NCBI GenBank assembly: GCA_963741805.1
Contig: CAVUJR010000059.1
Coordinates: 9,242-73,241, forward strand
Origin: an uncultured Chloroflexia bacterium
Lineage (GTDB): Bacteria; Chloroflexota; Chloroflexia; Thermomicrobiales; UBA6265
Direction: 5' to 3'
Length of the DNA stretch: 64,000 nucleotides
Numbering within the stretch: position 1 is the first letter of the stretch; every line of letters starts with the position of its first letter. Made by a program: the position numbers and the translations under genes. The notes beneath the pieces were generated by a model. The model made no database searches. It had not been told where the DNA came from and worked only from the letters and a program-made list of their open reading frames with translations. Shown here in pieces: positions 43,329 through 49,085 of the stretch.

Positions 43329-43647
43329 GGGGGTGTCTCCGGGTGCGGTGGTGGCGTGGTCGGTGGTCGGGTTGGGCGCGGTGGCGGCGGCGTCTGTCGC
43401 GGCCTGCCGCGCTGGGTAGCCTCGGCCTCGCCCCCGAAGGATGTGGTGGTGTGGGTGGTGTCGGGGTGGCGGTCGGCGGGCATGGGAGCTCCGATGGGTG
43501 TGGCGGCATGACAAGAGGCCCGGCGTGGTGCCGGGATGCCTGCCCATTGTGCCAAAGGGGACGCATGCGCGGCAATCCGGGGCGGGATGCGTGGGGTGGC
43601 AAGGCGATCAGGATCATGGTCAATCACGTGTTTGCGGGGGTGGTTGC

Positions 43648-43703
43648 CATAAGGAAGATGTTCAGAACTCCTGTATATGGGGGTTTTGAACATCTTCCTT
43701 ATG
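43648..43703. repeat. palindromic repeat copy a (subfamily 1)
   Basis: CATAAGGAAGATGTTCAGAAC-loop(..TGTATATGGGGG..)-TTTTGAACATCTTCCTTATG. Near-identical to copy f. Confidence 0.85.
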
Positions 43704-43861
43704 TTGGGTGGTTGGGGGCGTTGATGAGGGCAGGGCGCGCCGGCAGGGGGCGAGATGGGCAGCGTCGGCGTACTCCCCGGCCACCGCGGGGCCGGGGCTA
43801 CAAGGCGGGAGATGGGTGCCGAGGCAATGACGCCGTGCGATGCGGCGATGGCTGCAAGGTG

Positions 43862-43908
43862 TCAAGATGTTCAGGTTTTGCCGTATACCGGAAACCTGAA
43901 CATCTTGA
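43862..43908. repeat. palindromic repeat copy b (subfamily 2)
   Basis: TCAAGATGTTCAGGTTT-TGCCGTATACCGG-AAACCTGAACATCTTGA followed by TTTCG. Confidence 0.85.
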
Positions 43909-43964
43909 TTTCGGGTGGGGGTTTTTGGCGTGGTTGCGGGGTTTTCGGGGTGTTAGGGCAATGG

Positions 43965-43983
43965 AGAAACCTGAGCATCTTGA
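43965..43983. repeat. palindromic repeat half-copy c
   Basis: GAGAAACCTGAGCATCTTGA equals only the right arm of subfamily 2. Confidence 0.6.
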
Positions 43984-44034
43984 CGCGCGGGGATATCGAC
44001 CCTTGGGCACCCGAAGGTGACCTGCGGATCGATT

Positions 44035-44061
44035 GGGCAGACATCAGAGTCTGCCCCTACA
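44035..44061. repeat. REP-like hairpin (GGGCAGAC-ATCAGAG-TCTGCCC + CTACA)
   Basis: Hairpin plus CTAC tail, the same architecture as the other REP copies in the window. Confidence 0.6.
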
Positions 44062-44557
44062 CAAGCGAGGGCATGGGGATGGGATGGAGGCAGGGTGCAT
44101 TCCGGTCGGGATGCGGCGGTTGGGTATCGACCTGCGGTCGATCGGCTTCGCCGGGGGATTCCTCCCTACGGTCGGAATGACGGTTTCTTTTTGGTGGGAG
44201 CAAGGTCGGCGGTCGACCCTTACCGAGAGAGGATGGCGGGGCGGGATGCGGCATCTGGGCACGGACCCCGGCCACTGCGGGCGCCACGGTGTGGCTACGC
44301 GGTGGATCTCCGGTACGGAGGGAGCCTGATTTGGTGGGAGGTATGGTGGCGCACTTTGGCGTTGCCGATGTGTATTAAGGGTAGAGGGATCTGTATGAGG
44401 TGGGTATGGGGGGAGTGTGTCCATCGCCGTTAAGGGTGTGTTTAAGGACGGGTTTGGGGTGGCTTCCCTCCCCTGCCCCTGTTCCGGGATGGCCGGGCGT
44501 TTTTCGGCCGGCGGTACGGCGGACGGGCAGAAGGACGAGGGATGTCGGGCAAGATGG

Positions 44558-44604
44558 TCAAGATGTTCAGGTTTCAGGTATATAGGAAAACCTGAACATC
44601 TTGA
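44558..44604. repeat. palindromic repeat copy d (subfamily 2)
   Basis: TCAAGATGTTCAGGTTT-CAGGTATATAGGA-AAACCTGAACATCTTGA followed by TTATCG. Confidence 0.85.
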
Positions 44605-44718
44605 TTATCGTCAATGCCCTGCCTCCCTGGCCGGTGCGTGGCGGGTCCGGGGTGGCGCTGCAGGGCGCTATGAATACCGCCCGTACAGGCGATGCCGGGC
44701 AACAGGGGCCGACATAAA

Positions 44719-44765
44719 AGAAGGTGTTCAGAAGTGTGTGTACAGGGAACTTCTGAGCATCTTGA
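44719..44765. repeat. palindromic repeat copy e (diverged)
   Basis: AGAAGGTGTTCAGAAGT-GTGTGTACAGGGA-ACTTCTGAGCATCTTGA followed by TTTTCG. Confidence 0.75.
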
Positions 44766-44859
44766 TTTTCGTCCCTGGCTTCCGGCCCTCCCTCGCCGGT
44801 GCGTGGCGGGTCCGGCGTTGGTGCGGGATCGGCGTCCTGCCCGCCATGGGTGAGCATGA

Positions 44860-44916
44860 CATAAGGAAGATGATCAGAACTCATGTATATAGGGGGTTTT
44901 GAACATCTTCCTTATG
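44860..44916. repeat. palindromic repeat copy f (subfamily 1)
   Basis: CATAAGGAAGATGATCAGAAC-loop(..TGTATATAGGGGG..)-TTTTGAACATCTTCCTTATG. Confidence 0.85.
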
Positions 44917-45052
44917 GCGACATGCTTCTCCGGCCCTTCCCTCGCCGGTTCGTGGCGGGGCATCGCTCCTGCGATGGGCGTGCGGCAGATGGCGCGGAGC
45001 CTGGCGGGCGATGGACGCGACGCTGGCGGCGAGCGATACAGGAGCGGGAACG

Positions 45053-45307
45053 ATGAGTGACGTGGACACGACGCAGGGGCATGGCGAGGGTCTGGAGCCG
45101 GTCGAGGCGGCGCAGCGGTATGTGGACGAGCGGATCCCGAACTCGGGGTGGAAGGTGGACGAGGTCGCGGGGAACATCGATTTCGGGATGGTGACGGTGG
45201 TGCTGGGGCAGTACCTGAAGTCGGGGGATGTGGAGCACCGGGCGGCGGGGAAAGAGGGTCATGGGCCGACGATCGAGGCGGCGGTGGATGATGCGTTGGC
45301 AAGATAG
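45053..45307 (+). CDS. hypothetical protein (84 aa)
   Basis: AGGAG lies 8 nt upstream of ATG 45053. Strong G/C third-position bias. No family recognised. Confidence 0.5.
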   Translation: MSDVDTTQGHGEGLEPVEAAQRYVDERIPNSGWKVDEVAGNIDFGMVTVVLGQYLKSGDVEHRAAGKEGHGPTIEAAVDDALAR

Positions 45308-45558
45308 CAAAGGACCCACAGGGCTGCACCCATGCGTAGGCGAGAACAATTCGTTCCGCCCTTCGATACGAACCCTCTGCCGACCAAGCATCACATATGT
45401 AATTTGGAGACGGGACGTCCAAACCACGAACCAAGCGAGTGGATGAGTTGGACGTCCTAGAGAGTCTTTGCTTTCACGAATGACGCAGCTAAGTACCTAG
45501 CTGCATCTATAGCAGCCGATTAGGTATGGCTCAGATCTATGCTGTTCAGATCAGATGG

Positions 45559-46431
45559 TCAGTCGTCACCCGAAGCTGGAATAGATTCGCTCATCTTTGG
45601 CGCCCCTCGTGACCGAAACCGGGTATCAACACGCTCCAGAAGCGAGCGAACGCGGCCAATGGAATAGTCGGTCTCGGTTGAGATTTCGCGGATGGATCGG
45701 CCAGATTCGTAGGCGTCCTTCAGGGTGTATGCGACTTGCTGCTGCTCGGCATCAGATAGTCTGCCGAAGAGTGGGAGTTGCGGCACATTGATCTCACCAC
45801 CCGCATAGCCCTTATGCACCTGGCCACGCGGGGCGACCTCTTCGGGGGCCTCGTCGCCCCATACGGCCCACGCGGGCTGCGGATACCGGGCAAACATCTC
45901 CAGATATGGGCCAGGTGAGCATGCCTCGATGAGCGGATATTGCTCATCGGGCTTCCGGGAATGCTCACGCTTGCGGGTCTCGATCATATTGACTTGGGAG
46001 CGTGCGGGAGCAAGGGTCCGCATGCTTCCCCGTACACCGAACAGCAAGAGTTCGGTAACGTTGCGAAAGTAGAAACCAACGCCACGACCGTCCGGTCCTC
46101 CGTCTTTACGCCTCTTTGCCCAGACGACATTTGAGACATAGCGAAAGCCCCATGCCTCCATCACCTTCAGGCCCTCGGGAAGCAACGCATTCGGTACCCA
46201 AAGGTAGAGATGGGCATTCTTCGCGATGACATCTTGCACGCGGAGATCGCAGATATCCTGCAACTCCATGGTGGAGTACCGGTCGAGGCGACGATGCTCA
46301 GGAGCAACCTTGCCGGTACGGTTTGAGAATCGCCAAGGAGGATCGGCGAGGACGGTTTGAAATCCACCTTCGACGGTCGGCAGCGGTGGAGGCGGCTGGA
46401 ACTCGCGAAGCGGCGATGCTTTCTGTGCCAT
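45559..46431 (-). CDS. MT-A70 family DNA N6-adenine methyltransferase with C-terminal HTH domain
   Basis: VLADPPWRF (DPPW catalytic motif), HLYLWVPNALL, and EHSRKPDE. The C-terminal GRSIREISTETDYSIGRVRSLLER is HTH-like. Confidence 0.85.
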   Translation of the reverse strand: MAQKASPLREFQPPPPLPTVEGGFQTVLADPPWRFSNRTGKVAPEHRRLDRYSTMELQDICDLRVQDVIAKNAHLYLWVPNALLPEGLKVMEAWGFRYVSNVVWAKRRKDGGPDGRGVGFYFRNVTELLLFGVRGSMRTLAPARSQVNMIETRKREHSRKPDEQYPLIEACSPGPYLEMFARYPQPAWAVWGDEAPEEVAPRGQVHKGYAGGEINVPQLPLFGRLSDAEQQQVAYTLKDAYESGRSIREISTETDYSIGRVRSLLERVDTRFRSRGAPKMSESIPASGDD

Positions 46432-46447
46432 GGGTTTCCCCGGATTC

Positions 46448-46475
46448 AGATCTTCAGTTTCAATGATTTAGATCT
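46448..46475. promoter_or_regulatory. pair of AGATCT palindromes 22 bp apart in the REase-MTase intergenic region
   Basis: TTCAGATCTTCAG (46448..46453) and TTTAGATCTTAGC (46470..46475) lie immediately upstream of the MTase start. Confidence 0.4.
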
Positions 46476-46502
46476 TAGCACAGATGAGCTGTACGTGCGC
46501 TA

Positions 46503-47195
46503 CTACCAGATGCTCCTACTTTGATCGAACGCATCCCGGATTATCTCGAAACCGGTGACACGGTCGGGCTCAATACCGACGACGATCAGAGGACATTCGC
46601 CTCCACCACCCAGATTGATACGTGGAACGAGCTTCTCCCAATGCGTTGTGGAAGAGCCGTATTTGACGCTTGCCGTGCGCTCGCCAGTTTTGACCGTGCC
46701 ACCGATCACCCGCTGCAACTCGGGACCGCGCGTCACGATGACGCCTACGGCCAACGCGCCCTCCCGGTGCAACGCCATGAAGTTGAGCAGGTCGCGGTCG
46801 AAAAACGGATCCTTATTGTTCCACTCCATCTCGACGGCGATACCTGGGTAAGGGTCACCTGATGACCCGACCGCGAACATGTCGATCTCATGGCCCCGCG
46901 TGGCATGGATCAGTTCGTCATCGATACGTTTTGAGATGGTGATGTTCCGCTTCCCCCACCCCCGCTGCTCGAGAAGAGAGTCAAAACGGCGAGTATGGGA
47001 AGCGCGGCTGCCGCCCCCGGAAAGGATCTCATGGACATCGATATGGAACTCTTCGAGGGCTTCACAAAGATCGCGGAAGTGATGGGGAAAAGCATCACGG
47101 AGGATGAGGTCTGCGTACCTCGTGACACCATAGGCATACCCTATCGGAAGTCCTTCGACGCTAGGTTCACGCACTACCCCTGGCGGATCAGACAT
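46503..47195 (-). CDS. Type II restriction endonuclease, BamHI/BglII-like fold (start uncertain; ORF open to 47363)
   Basis: EIDMFAV..GIAVEMEWNNKDPFFDRDLLNFMAL resembles the D...E-x-E/Q catalytic core plus following helix of BamHI (VGMEFETGN..) and BglII (LVEVQFSNYPF..). Confidence 0.6.
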   Translation of the reverse strand: MSDPPGVVREPSVEGLPIGYAYGVTRYADLILRDAFPHHFRDLCEALEEFHIDVHEILSGGGSRASHTRRFDSLLEQRGWGKRNITISKRIDDELIHATRGHEIDMFAVGSSGDPYPGIAVEMEWNNKDPFFDRDLLNFMALHREGALAVGVIVTRGPELQRVIGGTVKTGERTASVKYGSSTTHWEKLVPRINLGGGGECPLIVVGIEPDRVTGFEIIRDAFDQSRSIW

Positions 47196-47280
47196 GCCTT
47201 CAACCGGGCCTATCAGATCGTCGCTGTTCACGAAGCCACCTCTCCCCCAGATTTCCCTTGATCGGTTCCCAGCGATCTCA

Positions 47281-47709
47281 TTATGGATCCAAGAACGAGG
47301 ATACGCGAACTTTATCGGTGCTCCATCGAGGGAAGGCACCGCGTACCTGCCCTGTCCAGGCATTCGGGCTGACGAGGTTCTGGAAGAACGAGAGGCGGTC
47401 GGCGAGGTTGGTGATCGGGACGGCGGTTTCGGGGGTGAGCCGCGCGACGACGCGGACCTTCAGGCGGCAGGGAAAGTCGTCTTTCCAGATCGAGTGGGTG
47501 GTGTCCTTGTAGGGCGCGGAGACGACTTCGAGGATGCCGACGAAGCGGGAGACGCCGGTGAGGTAGCAGAGCATGTAGTCGCCGACGGCGACGCGTTGGA
47601 CCTGGCTCCAGCGGTTCTCGCGAAAGCCGGTGACGGAGGCTCCTGCGTCGAGGAACTCCTGCCACGTGCCGATGGAGAACAGGTTCAGCCAATACGACCG
47701 TGCCGCCAT
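47281..47709 (-). CDS. EVE (PUA-like) domain protein
   Basis: YWLNLFSIGTWQEF..GDYMLCYLTGVSRFVGILEVVS..FPCRLKVRVV is typical of EVE/ASCH-type PUA-like modified-base readers. Confidence 0.75.
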   Translation of the reverse strand: MAARSYWLNLFSIGTWQEFLDAGASVTGFRENRWSQVQRVAVGDYMLCYLTGVSRFVGILEVVSAPYKDTTHSIWKDDFPCRLKVRVVARLTPETAVPITNLADRLSFFQNLVSPNAWTGQVRGAFPRWSTDKVRVSSFLDP

Positions 47710-47981
47710 GCGTTTCTTCCTGGTTTCGTCGATTCCCGTACCGGCAGTTTCGCATAGTGGTGGAGGATATGGAAGTGTAGCCCTCGCATCGTAGGGGTCG
47801 TACCGTGTGTCGACCCCACCGGGTGGCCCTGCGAAGCAGGGCCAGAGCGAGAGCGACCCCTCGAGCCGCAGGGCACCCTAGCAGTGTCCACGGGACGATA
47901 CCCACGACGCGCAAGGGACCGATTCGCGGTCCTGCACGGCGCCCGGTTATCGACATTCGGTGACCAGGAGGCCACCTTCAT

Positions 47982-48027
47982 GTCGATGGGGTCGACACGG
48001 TCGTGGCTACGGCGGTCGACCCCTACG
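47982..48027. repeat. REP-like element GTCGATGGGGTCGACACGGTCGTGGCTACGGCGGTCGACCCCTACG
   Basis: Near-identical copy at 52223..52267. Related GGGGTCG..TCGACCCC hairpins at about 47795..47822 and 38374..38396. Confidence 0.8.
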
Positions 48028-48296
48028 CGGGATGGGGGACGGTTGGTACGAGGGCGCGGTGGTTGTGGCGCGGGGTTCGGCTTCGCCTGGGGCACCTTCG
48101 CGTTCGCTCAGGGTGACGTCCCTCTTGGGTGCGAGCGGGGTTGGCGGGAGCGGTTTTGGGTGCCGGTGGGAGGACATTCCCTTCGGGAAGTACCTATGCT
48201 ACGGAGGGCGGGGCGCGCCAGATTCGTCCGGATTATTAGCTGATATGATGGATGATAGTTCAGGCGACGAGTTGCAACGTCGCTGAAGGAGGCGCT

Positions 48297-48635
48297 ATGT
48301 CCAGGGCTGTATCAGCCAACGAGGCCAAGAACCGATTGGGATCGCTGCTACGCTCCGTGAGCGCGGAGGGCGAAGAAGTGATCGTGGAGAGCCACGGCAA
48401 GCCCAAGGCGGTGCTGATCTCGTTCGAAGCGTACGAGGAAGTGCTGGCGCTGCGGGAGCAGAAGCGACGGGCCGATGCGCTGGCGGAACTGCGGGCGTTG
48501 CGGGACGAGGTGCGGGCGCGGAACGCATCCATGGGCGCGGACGAGGTGGAGGCGCTGGCCGACCGCGTGTCGCGGGAGATCGTAGACGACCTGGCGGCGT
48601 CGGAGGCGGTGACGTTCGAGCGGGACGGGCGTTAG
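48297..48635 (+). CDS. Phd/YefM-family antitoxin
   Basis: VSANEAKNRLGSLLRSVSAEGEEVIVESHGKPKAVLISFEAYE is the classic Phd/YefM N-domain. Confidence 0.8.
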   Translation: MSRAVSANEAKNRLGSLLRSVSAEGEEVIVESHGKPKAVLISFEAYEEVLALREQKRRADALAELRALRDEVRARNASMGADEVEALADRVSREIVDDLAASEAVTFERDGR

Positions 48636-48638
48636 CCA

Positions 48639-49085
48639 ATGGCGATTCGCGCATTGCTGGATGCGAACGTCTTCATCAGTTACCTCCTCTCCCCTGACGG
48701 GTCCTCGGCGACGATCCGGACCGTAGAGGGCGCGTTTACGGGGGCGTACCAGATGTTGCTGCCCGAGGGGGTGATCGCGGAGCTGCGCGGGAAGACGGCG
48801 ACAAAGCCGTGGTTAGCGGCGCGGATTCGGCCCGAAGAGACGGAGCGACTGGTTCGGCTGCTGACGGCGGTTGCGGAGGTGGTGCCGGAGATCGGGGAGC
48901 CGTTGCCGGAGGTCGGGCGGGACCGGAAGGACGATTACCTGTTCGCGCACGCGGTGGTCGGGCGGGCGGATTTCCTGGTGTCCGGAGACAAGGGCGTGCA
49001 GGCGGTCGGCCAGATCGGCACGGTGCGCGTGGTGAGCCCAGCGGGGTTTCTCGATGCGATCGAGGGCGATGCGGCGGGCACGTAG
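48639..49085 (+). CDS. PIN-domain toxin (TIGR00305-like)
   Basis: LLDANVFISYLL, DRKDDYLFAHAV and DFLVSGDKG are PIN acidic motifs. It starts 3 nt after the antitoxin stop. Confidence 0.85.
   Translation: MAIRALLDANVFISYLLSPDGSSATIRTVEGAFTGAYQMLLPEGVIAELRGKTATKPWLAARIRPEETERLVRLLTAVAEVVPEIGEPLPEVGRDRKDDYLFAHAVVGRADFLVSGDKGVQAVGQIGTVRVVSPAGFLDAIEGDAAGT

Follow-up and report, generated by a model that had tools for sequence, protein, structure and literature searches.

The segment 45559–47709 of the 64-kb window (the whole 64,000-nucleotide stretch of DNA analysed here) raises the question of whether a reader of modified bases and a restriction-modification (R-M) pair, encoded side by side, form a single defence system. 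The original prediction described three co-directional genes, and three minus-strand open reading frames (ORFs) with the corresponding domains are borne out by ORF calling and Pfam: an EVE ORF (47709–47281), a restriction endonuclease (REase) ORF that in its longest form spans 286 amino acids (47363–46503), and a methyltransferase (MTase) ORF (46431–45559). We find that what looks like a system of three genes consists of two working genes and a leftover stub. In the explanation that we consider likely, an acquired R-M cassette of ~1.9 kb (~45408–47316) replaced the 3′ two-thirds of a resident EVE-nuclease gene, with the EVE ORF being the stub of that gene.

Base composition and flanks of the locus

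The AT-rich patch proposed to hold all three genes is real, with a windowed GC content of 0.53–0.61 across 45200–47400 compared with about 0.70 on either side, and the REase and MTase genes share its low GC3 (0.65 and 0.63 respectively). The EVE gene, however, lies outside it, with the EVE-homologous part having a GC3 of 0.878 compared with 0.82–0.94 for host genes, and the compositional boundary falls within the EVE ORF.

The palindromic-repeat tract expected on the left of the patch is present, since AAGATGTTCAG matches the window 14 times and 11 of these matches lie within 43655–44909 (chance expectation 0.41). The right-hand side showed no REP cluster, with 47700–48260 holding a single 15-nt inverted-repeat pair, and a search for a tRNA gene marking a possible integration site found none. 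A scan of 45300–48300 detected neither a consensus sigma-70 promoter nor an intrinsic terminator, and for this reason the promoter and operator layout described below is inferred. A toxin-antitoxin pair adjoins the locus, with a 98-residue ORF on its other side.

The EVE open reading frame is a 3′-truncated gene

With a score of 27.1 bits the EVE ORF exceeds the cut-off of the Pfam EVE family (PF01878; 23 bits), and a Foldseek search with the model of its product returns the EVE proteins PH1033 and MJECL36 with a probability of 1.0 (TM 0.66–0.71; 0.70 for PH1033), followed by the YTH m6A readers as the next closest folds. The part homologous to the EVE family corresponds to the first 131 codons of a native gene for an EVE-nuclease protein (47317–47709, minus strand), as defined by Pfam, Foldseek, tblastn, and GC3. 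Its start codon and AGGAAG ribosome-binding site are intact, there is no internal stop codon or frameshift, and the stub keeps 53 of the 55 columns in which the EVE family shows 90% conservation or more, deviating at the other two.

Homology to 11 family members stops at 47317–47335, around residue 131 (tblastn), and the alignment diverges beyond this residue, with the remaining eleven codons (KVRVSSFLDP plus the stop codon; 47281–47316, minus strand) being unlike the EVE family and entering the foreign cassette at its left edge. The GC content is 0.51 over 47232–47316, and a -10-like CATAAT at the EVE stop codon may represent a putative promoter, the consensus scan of this region being negative. 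The EVE domain is incomplete at its C-terminal end, with the last helix missing. In a complete family domain (model pLDDT 93) this terminal helix comprises 16 residues (132–147), modelled with a pLDDT of 97–98 in family member P0056. The stub model is confident over residues 6–100, which form an EVE/YTH-like barrel, and its confidence drops from about residue 105, with residues 105–142 having pLDDT values of 57–34.

The nature of the missing part is indicated by the parent family. In 76 of the 80 EVE-family loci compared, a nuclease of the NmeDI_C type directly follows the EVE domain, and of these 76 loci 71 have the two in the same frame and 63 have complete ORFs, with a median length of 368 amino acids (an example of a full-length member is the L073 ORF). 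The nuclease half matches PADLOC REase_II (63 bits). The closest EVE relative (L151; 73% identical), which represents a locus different from that of the window, has the EVE and NmeDI_C pairing, as do two genome loci (L002 and L003). No NmeDI_C remnant was found across the whole 64-kb window, which encodes EVE and NmeDI_C neither in one protein nor in adjacent genes. The EVE ORF, predicted to be a standalone first gene, is instead a 131-residue remnant of a ~368-residue EVE-nuclease protein, lacking the last helix and the nuclease.

The parent EVE and NmeDI_C-type protein is probably a Type IV modification-dependent restriction enzyme. Type IV enzymes that join a PUA-superfamily reader to a nuclease include EVE-HNH and SRA-nuclease fusions, and the parent family is likewise built from an N-terminal EVE domain and a C-terminal restriction-type nuclease in ~368 residues. 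Its nuclease is NmeDI_C-like and not HNH, and the copy in the window has lost both the nuclease and the terminal part of the reader domain.

The breakpoint and the sister lineage

Three signals meet at 47310–47317, namely the end of EVE-family homology, a fall in GC3 from 0.88 to about 0.54–0.65, and a step in identity to a sister-lineage contig (L001) from 75–80% to 93–98%, with 93–100% identity from 47309 on. This position is the left edge of the ~1.9-kb foreign R-M cassette. L001 carries the same junction between the truncated EVE gene and the R-M genes, with the same frames and stop codon, and because the junction is common to both, the arrangement has persisted. At the other end, homology to L001 ends at window position 45476 and picks up at 45407, with L001 carrying between these breaks a 1.9-kb insert that contains an AbiU/AIPR gene. 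This insertion and the neighbouring toxin-antitoxin pair mark the site as a general hotspot for defence-gene turnover. Exact-sequence look-ups with the PIN and EVE proteins encoded in the window gave no record, and the search for a pre-insertion allele of the exact locus found none.

Codon changes between the window and L001 point to purifying selection on both R-M genes, with 27 synonymous and 8 nonsynonymous changes in the REase and 65 and 4 respectively in the MTase. The stub shows a ratio of 7 synonymous to 10 nonsynonymous changes and a 3-codon deletion in L001, whose copy differs at 6 of 13 conserved positions and, judged from these changes, appears to be decaying.

Linkage of EVE and restriction-modification genes

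A composite defence of EVE and R-M components, or control of the nuclease by EVE, had also been proposed, and comparison of homologous loci speaks against both, giving the outcome that the original prediction itself had named as refuting it. Among 67 other, independent REase loci, none has an EVE gene of the window's family within an 8-kb radius (tblastn and HMM searches), and none of the 80 EVE-family loci contains the REase or an MT-A70 methylase; the sole further co-occurrence is the orthologous locus in L001. An MT-A70 methylase adjoins the REase everywhere except at three of the 67 loci, of which two are cut by a contig end, and the REase-methylase pairs occur in varied orientations and contexts. 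The predicted Type II R-M pair stands, as a horizontally acquired combination of a BglII/BstYI-family REase and an MT-A70 methylase.

The restriction endonuclease

The REase is a BglII/BstYI-family Type II endonuclease of 242 amino acids with a GTG start (46503–47231, minus strand), scoring 111.7 bits with the Endonuc-BglII model (PF09195; cut-off 26) over profile positions 5–163 of 163. Homologues (3352 found) are typically 240–242 residues long, and mostly 224–257 residues among the 120 listed, and they span only 82–85% of the 286-residue ORF. The best REase matches point to a Thermomicrobiales-like lineage. The start lies at GTG 47231, with GGGGGAGAGG just upstream and a gap of 49 nt to the EVE stop codon, and the 44 extra N-terminal codons of the longest ORF have no homology. 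The 83-nt overlap reported between the EVE and REase ORFs is an artefact of calling the longest ORF.

Residues D117, E134, and E136 are invariant in an alignment of 13 REase homologues (A2) and are candidates for the catalytic acidic residues. Phmmer and profile searches against the PDB did not reach the BglII, BstYI, or BamHI structures, the sequence similarity to BglII and BstYI being too low, and the assignment as a nuclease is therefore based on the Pfam model and on the name that NCBI annotators give to the homologues, ‘BglII/BstYI family type II restriction endonuclease’. The window REase shares with the BglII/BstYI family the strong match to the family model, a length of ~240 residues, an adjacent cognate methylase, invariant acidic residues (here the candidates D117 and E134-x-E136), and GATC-core palindromes (AGATCT/RGATCY) in the control region of the system. 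From these palindromes one might guess that the enzyme recognises RGATCY or AGATCT. With 15 sites, the window shows no depletion of AGATCT, and site avoidance is therefore uninformative on specificity. In the classical BglII system the methylase acts on N4 of cytosine and the C protein is encoded separately, whereas the REase described here is paired with an N6-adenine methylase of the MT-A70 type to which a helix-turn-helix (HTH) is fused.

The methylase and its putative operator

The methylase (45559–46431, minus strand; 290 amino acids) is an N6-adenine DNA methyltransferase of the MT-A70 (DPPW) type according to Pfam, PADLOC, and PDB matches, with a catalytic MT-A70 domain at residues 24–194 (46362–45850) and a C-terminal HTH_58 domain at residues 224–278 (45762–45598). 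It matches the full-length MT-A70 profile (PF05063) with 92.8 bits and HTH_58 with 40.2 bits, and PADLOC MTase_II (PDLC03221) covers the entire protein, including the tail, with 437 bits. Its ADPPW motif aligns with the DPPW of the ciliate MTA1 and METTL3 catalytic domains, and the enzyme would be expected to form m6A on DNA.

Two AGATCT boxes, 22 bp apart from start to start, lie in the spacer between the R-M genes (46448–46475), 14–42 nt upstream of the methylase ATG, with box 1 overlapping TGcTAAGAT, an extended -10-like motif. This is the sole such pair in the 64-kb window (0.02 expected); a third AGATCT (45533) lies in the AT-rich 3′ tail of the cassette (45408–45558, minus strand; GC 0.50), together with short hairpins. 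Paired RGATCY boxes occur upstream of the methylase in 22 of 29 loci with an HTH_58 tail, with closer boxes in 3 more. They are absent from all 20 loci whose methylase has an XRE HTH fused N-terminally, and occur in one of the 15 in which no HTH was seen. Among the sequences compared, paired AGATCT/RGATCY boxes track the HTH_58 tail (22–25 of 29, vs 1 of 35 for other architectures). Sister clades of the window methylase carry the N-terminal XRE HTH instead, and no boxes. The AGATCT pair is on this evidence a putative operator for the HTH_58 tail, which may bind it and autoregulate the methylase.

No small HTH ORF that could serve as a separate C gene occurs within 45408–47316 (ORF list and Pfam), which supports the suggestion that an HTH carried by the methylase stands in for a C protein, and in this methylase family the HTH is fused either N- or C-terminally. 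A separate upstream XRE gene for the tail-less methylases was considered and rejected, the XRE HTH being an in-frame N-terminal fusion. In R-M systems of the SsoII/EcoRII/MspI type, methyltransferases autoregulate through a fused HTH, which is N-terminal and carried by C5-cytosine methylases. The window methylase resembles these in its fused HTH, the lack of a C gene, and the repeated operator-like element upstream, and differs from them in that its HTH is an HTH_58 domain at the C-terminus of an enzyme of the MT-A70 family. As the putative operator is a palindrome typical of the targets of this REase family, methylation-sensitive control is conceivable.

Discussion

The resident gene of this locus would have encoded EVE and an NmeDI_C-type nuclease, a probable Type IV enzyme, and would have been disrupted by the cassette at ~45408–47316. 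Of the two cassette genes, the first encodes the 242-residue BglII/BstYI-family endonuclease and the second the MT-A70 methylase, which would protect host DNA. The HTH_58 domain most likely binds the two AGATCT (RGATCY) boxes overlapping the methylase promoter and 5′ leader, and this binding would set the level of the methylase, and indirectly that of the nuclease, without a C protein. The stub is probably non-functional, and no working partner of the R-M pair.

Preservation of the stub is evidence against this explanation, as an old pseudogene would not be expected to be so well preserved. Either a recent knock-out or residual function would fit this preservation, and a recent knock-out is plausible because the mosaic cassette suggests recombinational transfer. 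Further points that count against the explanation are the persistence of the junction in L001, the negative promoter and terminator scan, the failure of searches with the REase to reach the BglII or BstYI structures, and the negative search for a pre-insertion allele.

An unlikely alternative is that the insertion site was selected, in that a resident Type IV enzyme dependent on methyl-adenine would attack DNA methylated by the MT-A70 enzyme, leaving as survivors only those cells whose EVE-nuclease gene was destroyed by the cassette. McrBC-type systems provide an established case of lethal conflict between Type IV enzymes and methylases that enter the cell, and such a conflict would fit the N6-adenine (DPPW) type of the methylase, the closeness of the stub fold to YTH m6A readers after PH1033 and MJECL36, the loss of exactly the nuclease half at the breakpoint, and the same knock-out in two lineages. 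Characterised EVE-nuclease fusions, however, prefer 5hmC or 5mC, and split or decayed copies of the family occur with no R-M genes nearby (L072, L003, L002, and L151). Furthermore, the site is a hotspot for defence-gene turnover, so that a chance landing is sufficient.

Lineage-specific co-option, in which the stub is a functional reader of modified bases that modulates the R-M pair or senses foreign modification, appears quite improbable. The stub could for example bind methylated AGATCT boxes. Its intact start codon, ribosome-binding site, and reading frame, its 53 conserved residues, the confident barrel over residues 6–100, and the junction kept in two lineages all favour such a role, as does its position co-directional with, and 49 nt upstream of, the REase, which makes co-transcription possible. 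Against this, the arrangement does not recur among the 67 REase and 80 EVE loci, the integral C-terminal helix is absent, with model confidence falling past residue ~105, and the L001 copy has lost conserved positions and three codons and gained more nonsynonymous than synonymous changes. Additionally, a recent recombinational knock-out can account for the good conservation of the stub. It is very improbable that the stub, having lost its nuclease to the cassette, was kept as a co-transcribed EVE/YTH-like reader of methylated DNA; were this so, it could for example sense methylation in incoming DNA or at the AGATCT boxes, tuning restriction. A milder variant of this reading is the selected landing described above, with the resident enzyme attacking m6A-methylated self DNA.

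A single EVE-BglII-like modification-dependent nuclease, hidden by a sequencing frameshift within 47190–47370 or derived from an ancestral fusion, is effectively refuted: the 83 nt that the longest REase ORF shares with the EVE ORF in another frame would suit it, but REase homologues begin at the internal GTG (47231) and leave a fusion unsupported, none of the 120 listed has an N-terminal EVE domain, the 44 additional codons lack homology, L001 has identical frames and stop codon, and the C-terminal partner in the EVE family is an NmeDI_C-type nuclease. A frameshift joining the two frames was likewise rejected, the resulting spacing and sequence being unlike the family consensus.

The likely replacement of the 3′ part of an EVE-nuclease gene by an R-M cassette carries a lesson for annotation, namely that neighbouring genes in a defence hotspot can pass for one system of several genes, and that composition, a homology breakpoint, and comparative context together tell a live R-M cassette from the remnant of a displaced gene. 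Relatives of the EVE and NmeDI_C-type family are encoded by at least 497 metagenomic stretches, and this large and apparently uncharacterised family of ~368-residue proteins provides good candidates for modification-dependent restriction enzymes. The association of HTH_58 with the boxes yields a testable model of R-M control without a C protein, where the operator could double as the enzyme's own substrate.

Gene content and boundaries

Three minus-strand ORFs were called within 45559-47709 of the window, and the domains originally predicted for them are real. The EVE ORF (47709..47281, 142 aa) has a weak Pfam EVE match that still passes the threshold (27.1 bits, cut-off 23), the longest REase ORF (47363..46503, 286 aa) matches Endonuc-BglII strongly over residues 87-265 (111.7 bits), and the methylase ORF (46431..45559, 290 aa) combines MT-A70 (92.8 bits) with a C-terminal HTH_58 (40.2 bits). 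The methylase can be aligned to the catalytic domains of ciliate MTA1 and METTL3, DPPW motif included, and for related phage methylases the annotation reads adenine methyltransferase / transcriptional regulator. The methylase matches PADLOC's profile PDLC03221 for Type II methyltransferases along its entire length, tail included (437 bits), placing this architecture among the R-M methylases already catalogued. Homologues of the REase are named 'BglII/BstYI family type II restriction endonuclease' by NCBI annotators. The 120 homologues listed are mostly 224-257 aa long, typically 240-242 aa, and span only 82-85% of the 286-aa ORF, with a 13-sequence alignment placing their start at the in-frame GTG 47231, which GGGGGAGAGG precedes. 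The true REase is 242 aa long and starts 49 nt past the EVE stop codon, and the 83-nt EVE/REase overlap, with the fusion it had implied, is a longest-ORF artefact.

Truncation of the EVE gene

Three independent signals meet at 47310-47317, with EVE-family homology stopping there, GC3 falling from 0.878 where the EVE ORF matches its family to 0.54 over the tail and spacer, and identity to L001, a sister-lineage contig with the same junction, rising from 75-80% in the EVE stub (47317..47709) to 93-98% from 47309 on. Given this coincidence, the EVE part is host DNA and the foreign island begins inside the EVE ORF, whose last eleven codons (KVRVSSFLDP and the stop) come from the edge of the ~1.9-kb R-M cassette (~45408-47316). 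The REase and the methylase have GC3 values of 0.65 and 0.63, and nearby host genes resemble the EVE part or lie above it, at 0.82-0.86 (toxin-antitoxin genes and a 98-aa ORF) or 0.94 (alaS and an MFS transporter). The low-GC patch that was proposed to hold all three genes does exist (GC 0.53-0.61 over 45200-47400 versus ~0.70 in the flanks), however the EVE gene does not belong to it.

The window EVE protein has 97 homologues (best 73% identical), which run past its end and share a conserved segment, DGEAxVxAxxEAxxNPxxRP. Long homologues continue into a C-terminal module that carries the motif HTEIQWxLLKLGxDMGxDVWVAxNDR and is assigned to PF27126 (NmeDI_C) in the collection's precomputed Pfam annotation. 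Scanning metagenomes with the EVE alignment gave 80 loci, with this nuclease module directly after the EVE domain in 76 and in the same reading frame in 71; complete EVE-nuclease ORFs, present in 63, have a median length of 368 aa. The nuclease half scores 63 bits against a PADLOC Type II restriction-enzyme profile, and the pairing, as fused or adjacent ORFs, is also seen at the locus of the closest EVE relative (L151) and in Ktedonobacter (L002, L003). Proteins of this family thus join a reader to a nuclease. A minority of its members are split, frameshifted or truncated (L072, L105, L123, L139, L140, L145, L003, L002 and L151).

Only residues 1-131 of this protein are kept in the window, with tblastn homology to eleven family members ending at 47317-47335 and no nuclease remnant found anywhere across the 64 kb. 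Structure prediction shows what the stub has lost, with the complete EVE domain of a family member (P0056, pLDDT 93.4) modelled with a strand (residues 128-130) and, beyond it, a terminal helix of 16 residues (132-147; pLDDT 97-98). The stub model is confident only to about residue 100, after which pLDDT runs from 57 to 34. Its core is nevertheless predicted to be a genuine EVE/YTH-like barrel, with PH1033 and MJECL36 the best Foldseek matches, followed by YTH m6A readers.

Linkage and state of the stub

The proposal that the EVE reader and the R-M pair form one composite system is not borne out. A genome scan with the REase alignment gave 67 loci in Chloroflexota (Thermomicrobiales), Actinomycetota and a few Proteobacteria, with an MT-A70 methylase adjoining the REase in all but three (two of them cut by contig ends). 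The window's EVE family was absent within 8 kb in all 67 by tblastn, and an EVE-family HMM run over all ORFs of at least 50 aa within this distance likewise gave no match, with the window as positive control; conversely, neither the REase nor the methylase occurs in any of the 80 EVE loci. These searches are family-specific, and would miss a very divergent EVE of another subfamily. The sole other EVE-R-M junction is that of L001, an orthologous locus of a related lineage (~92% identical overall). The methylase takes several orientations relative to the REase, and the loci share no related sequence ahead of the REase, so that the two genes together act like a mobile module.

Compared with L001, the window's REase gene has 27 synonymous and 8 nonsynonymous differences at the codon level and its methylase gene 65 and 4; over the 46 codons of the stub that are visible, the counts are 7 and 10, and three codons are deleted in L001. 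Of 13 family positions with at least 90% conservation, the L001 fragment is off-consensus at 6. The window stub departs at only 2 of 55 such positions, both adjoining the breakpoint. Its start codon and ribosome-binding site are intact and its reading frame is free of stop codons and frameshifts, a preservation that counts against a simple old pseudogene. Retention of some residual function is improbable. The cassette is a mosaic relative to L001, with a methylase block of ~300 nt (46230-45930) only 80-87% identical, its changes almost all synonymous, between flanks of 95-100%. This pattern suggests recombinational exchange between diverged cassette copies, and the window's EVE gene may accordingly have been knocked out only recently.

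Probable control of the R-M pair

The idea that an HTH on the methylase itself stands in for a C protein is supported and can be extended, with paired boxes tracking HTH_58 (22-25 of 29 loci versus 1 of 35). The 71-nt R-M spacer holds two AGATCT sites 22 bp apart (46448-46475), a pair unique in the window (0.02 expected), the first overlapping a TGcTAAGAT motif; a consensus promoter scan found none. Counting RGATCY boxes 8-30 nt apart upstream of the methylase as paired, pairs occur in 22 of the 29 REase loci whose methylase has a C-terminal HTH_58, with closer boxes in three more, and in none of the 20 with an in-frame N-terminal XRE-type HTH (Pfam HTH_31, HTH_3). Among the 15 with no HTH seen there is one, L020, whose contig stops within the methylase gene. 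The boxes extend to about AAGATCTAnT, lie in direct or inverted orientation, and fit a protein operator with the core AGATCT, AGATCC or GGATCT. The HTH_58 tail probably binds them and autoregulates the methylase, thereby replacing a C protein. Since GATC-centred palindromes like this core are typical targets of BglII/BstYI-type enzymes, the core may double as the system's own recognition site, which would make control methylation-sensitive.

All four window copies of TCAGATC (GATCTGA on the coding strand) lie inside the cassette (45531, 45546, 46446 and 47213), two of them 15 nt apart just past the methylase stop, beside a third AGATCT (45533), with one of these two mutated in L001. The window shows no depletion of AGATCT (15 sites) or GGATCC (17 sites), and GATC occurs 564 times, roughly three times a naive base-composition expectation that takes no account of codons.

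Genomic neighbourhood

At the cassette's downstream junction (45407-45476, ~70 nt in the window), L001 carries exactly there a 589-aa AIPR/AbiU-like abortive-infection gene (L001 2105-3874; PADLOC AbiU, 153 bits). A plus-strand Phd/YefM antitoxin and PIN_3 toxin pair (48252-49085; 49.5 and 46.8 bits) lies ~540 nt from the EVE start, and together these point to a hotspot for defence-gene turnover. GC3 of the Phd/PIN pair is slightly below that of core genes, as in the EVE stub and the acidic 98-aa ORF (45011-45307, plus strand; GC3 0.83, host-like), suggesting an older, partly ameliorated accessory region in which the R-M cassette was the last arrival. The 98-aa ORF, between a repeat tract and the cassette, has no Pfam match and is conserved in L001 (about 90% nucleotide identity).

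The tract (43640-44920) comprises at least five hairpin repeats of roughly 50 nt (AAGATGTTCAG ... CTGAACATCTT), with a second unit, CCTCCCTSGCCGGTGCGTGGCGGGTCCGG, interspersed. The repeat arm has 11 of its 14 window matches there (0.41 expected by chance), and the tract, conserved in the sister lineage (L001 4638-5143), resembles a REP/MITE-type array separating alaS from the defence hotspot.

Relation to known systems

The classical BglII system pairs an N4-cytosine methylase with a C protein, autoregulation by methylases with a fused HTH is known from the SsoII type, and fusions of a PUA-family reader to a nuclease make up an established class among Type IV enzymes; the locus belongs to already known kinds of system. 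Combining reader and nuclease in one protein is characteristic of Type IV modification-dependent restriction enzymes. Proteins joining EVE to an NmeDI_C-type nuclease (~368 aa) form a large family, with relatives encoded on at least 497 metagenomic stretches. This family is apparently uncharacterised, and its members are candidate modification-dependent restriction enzymes.
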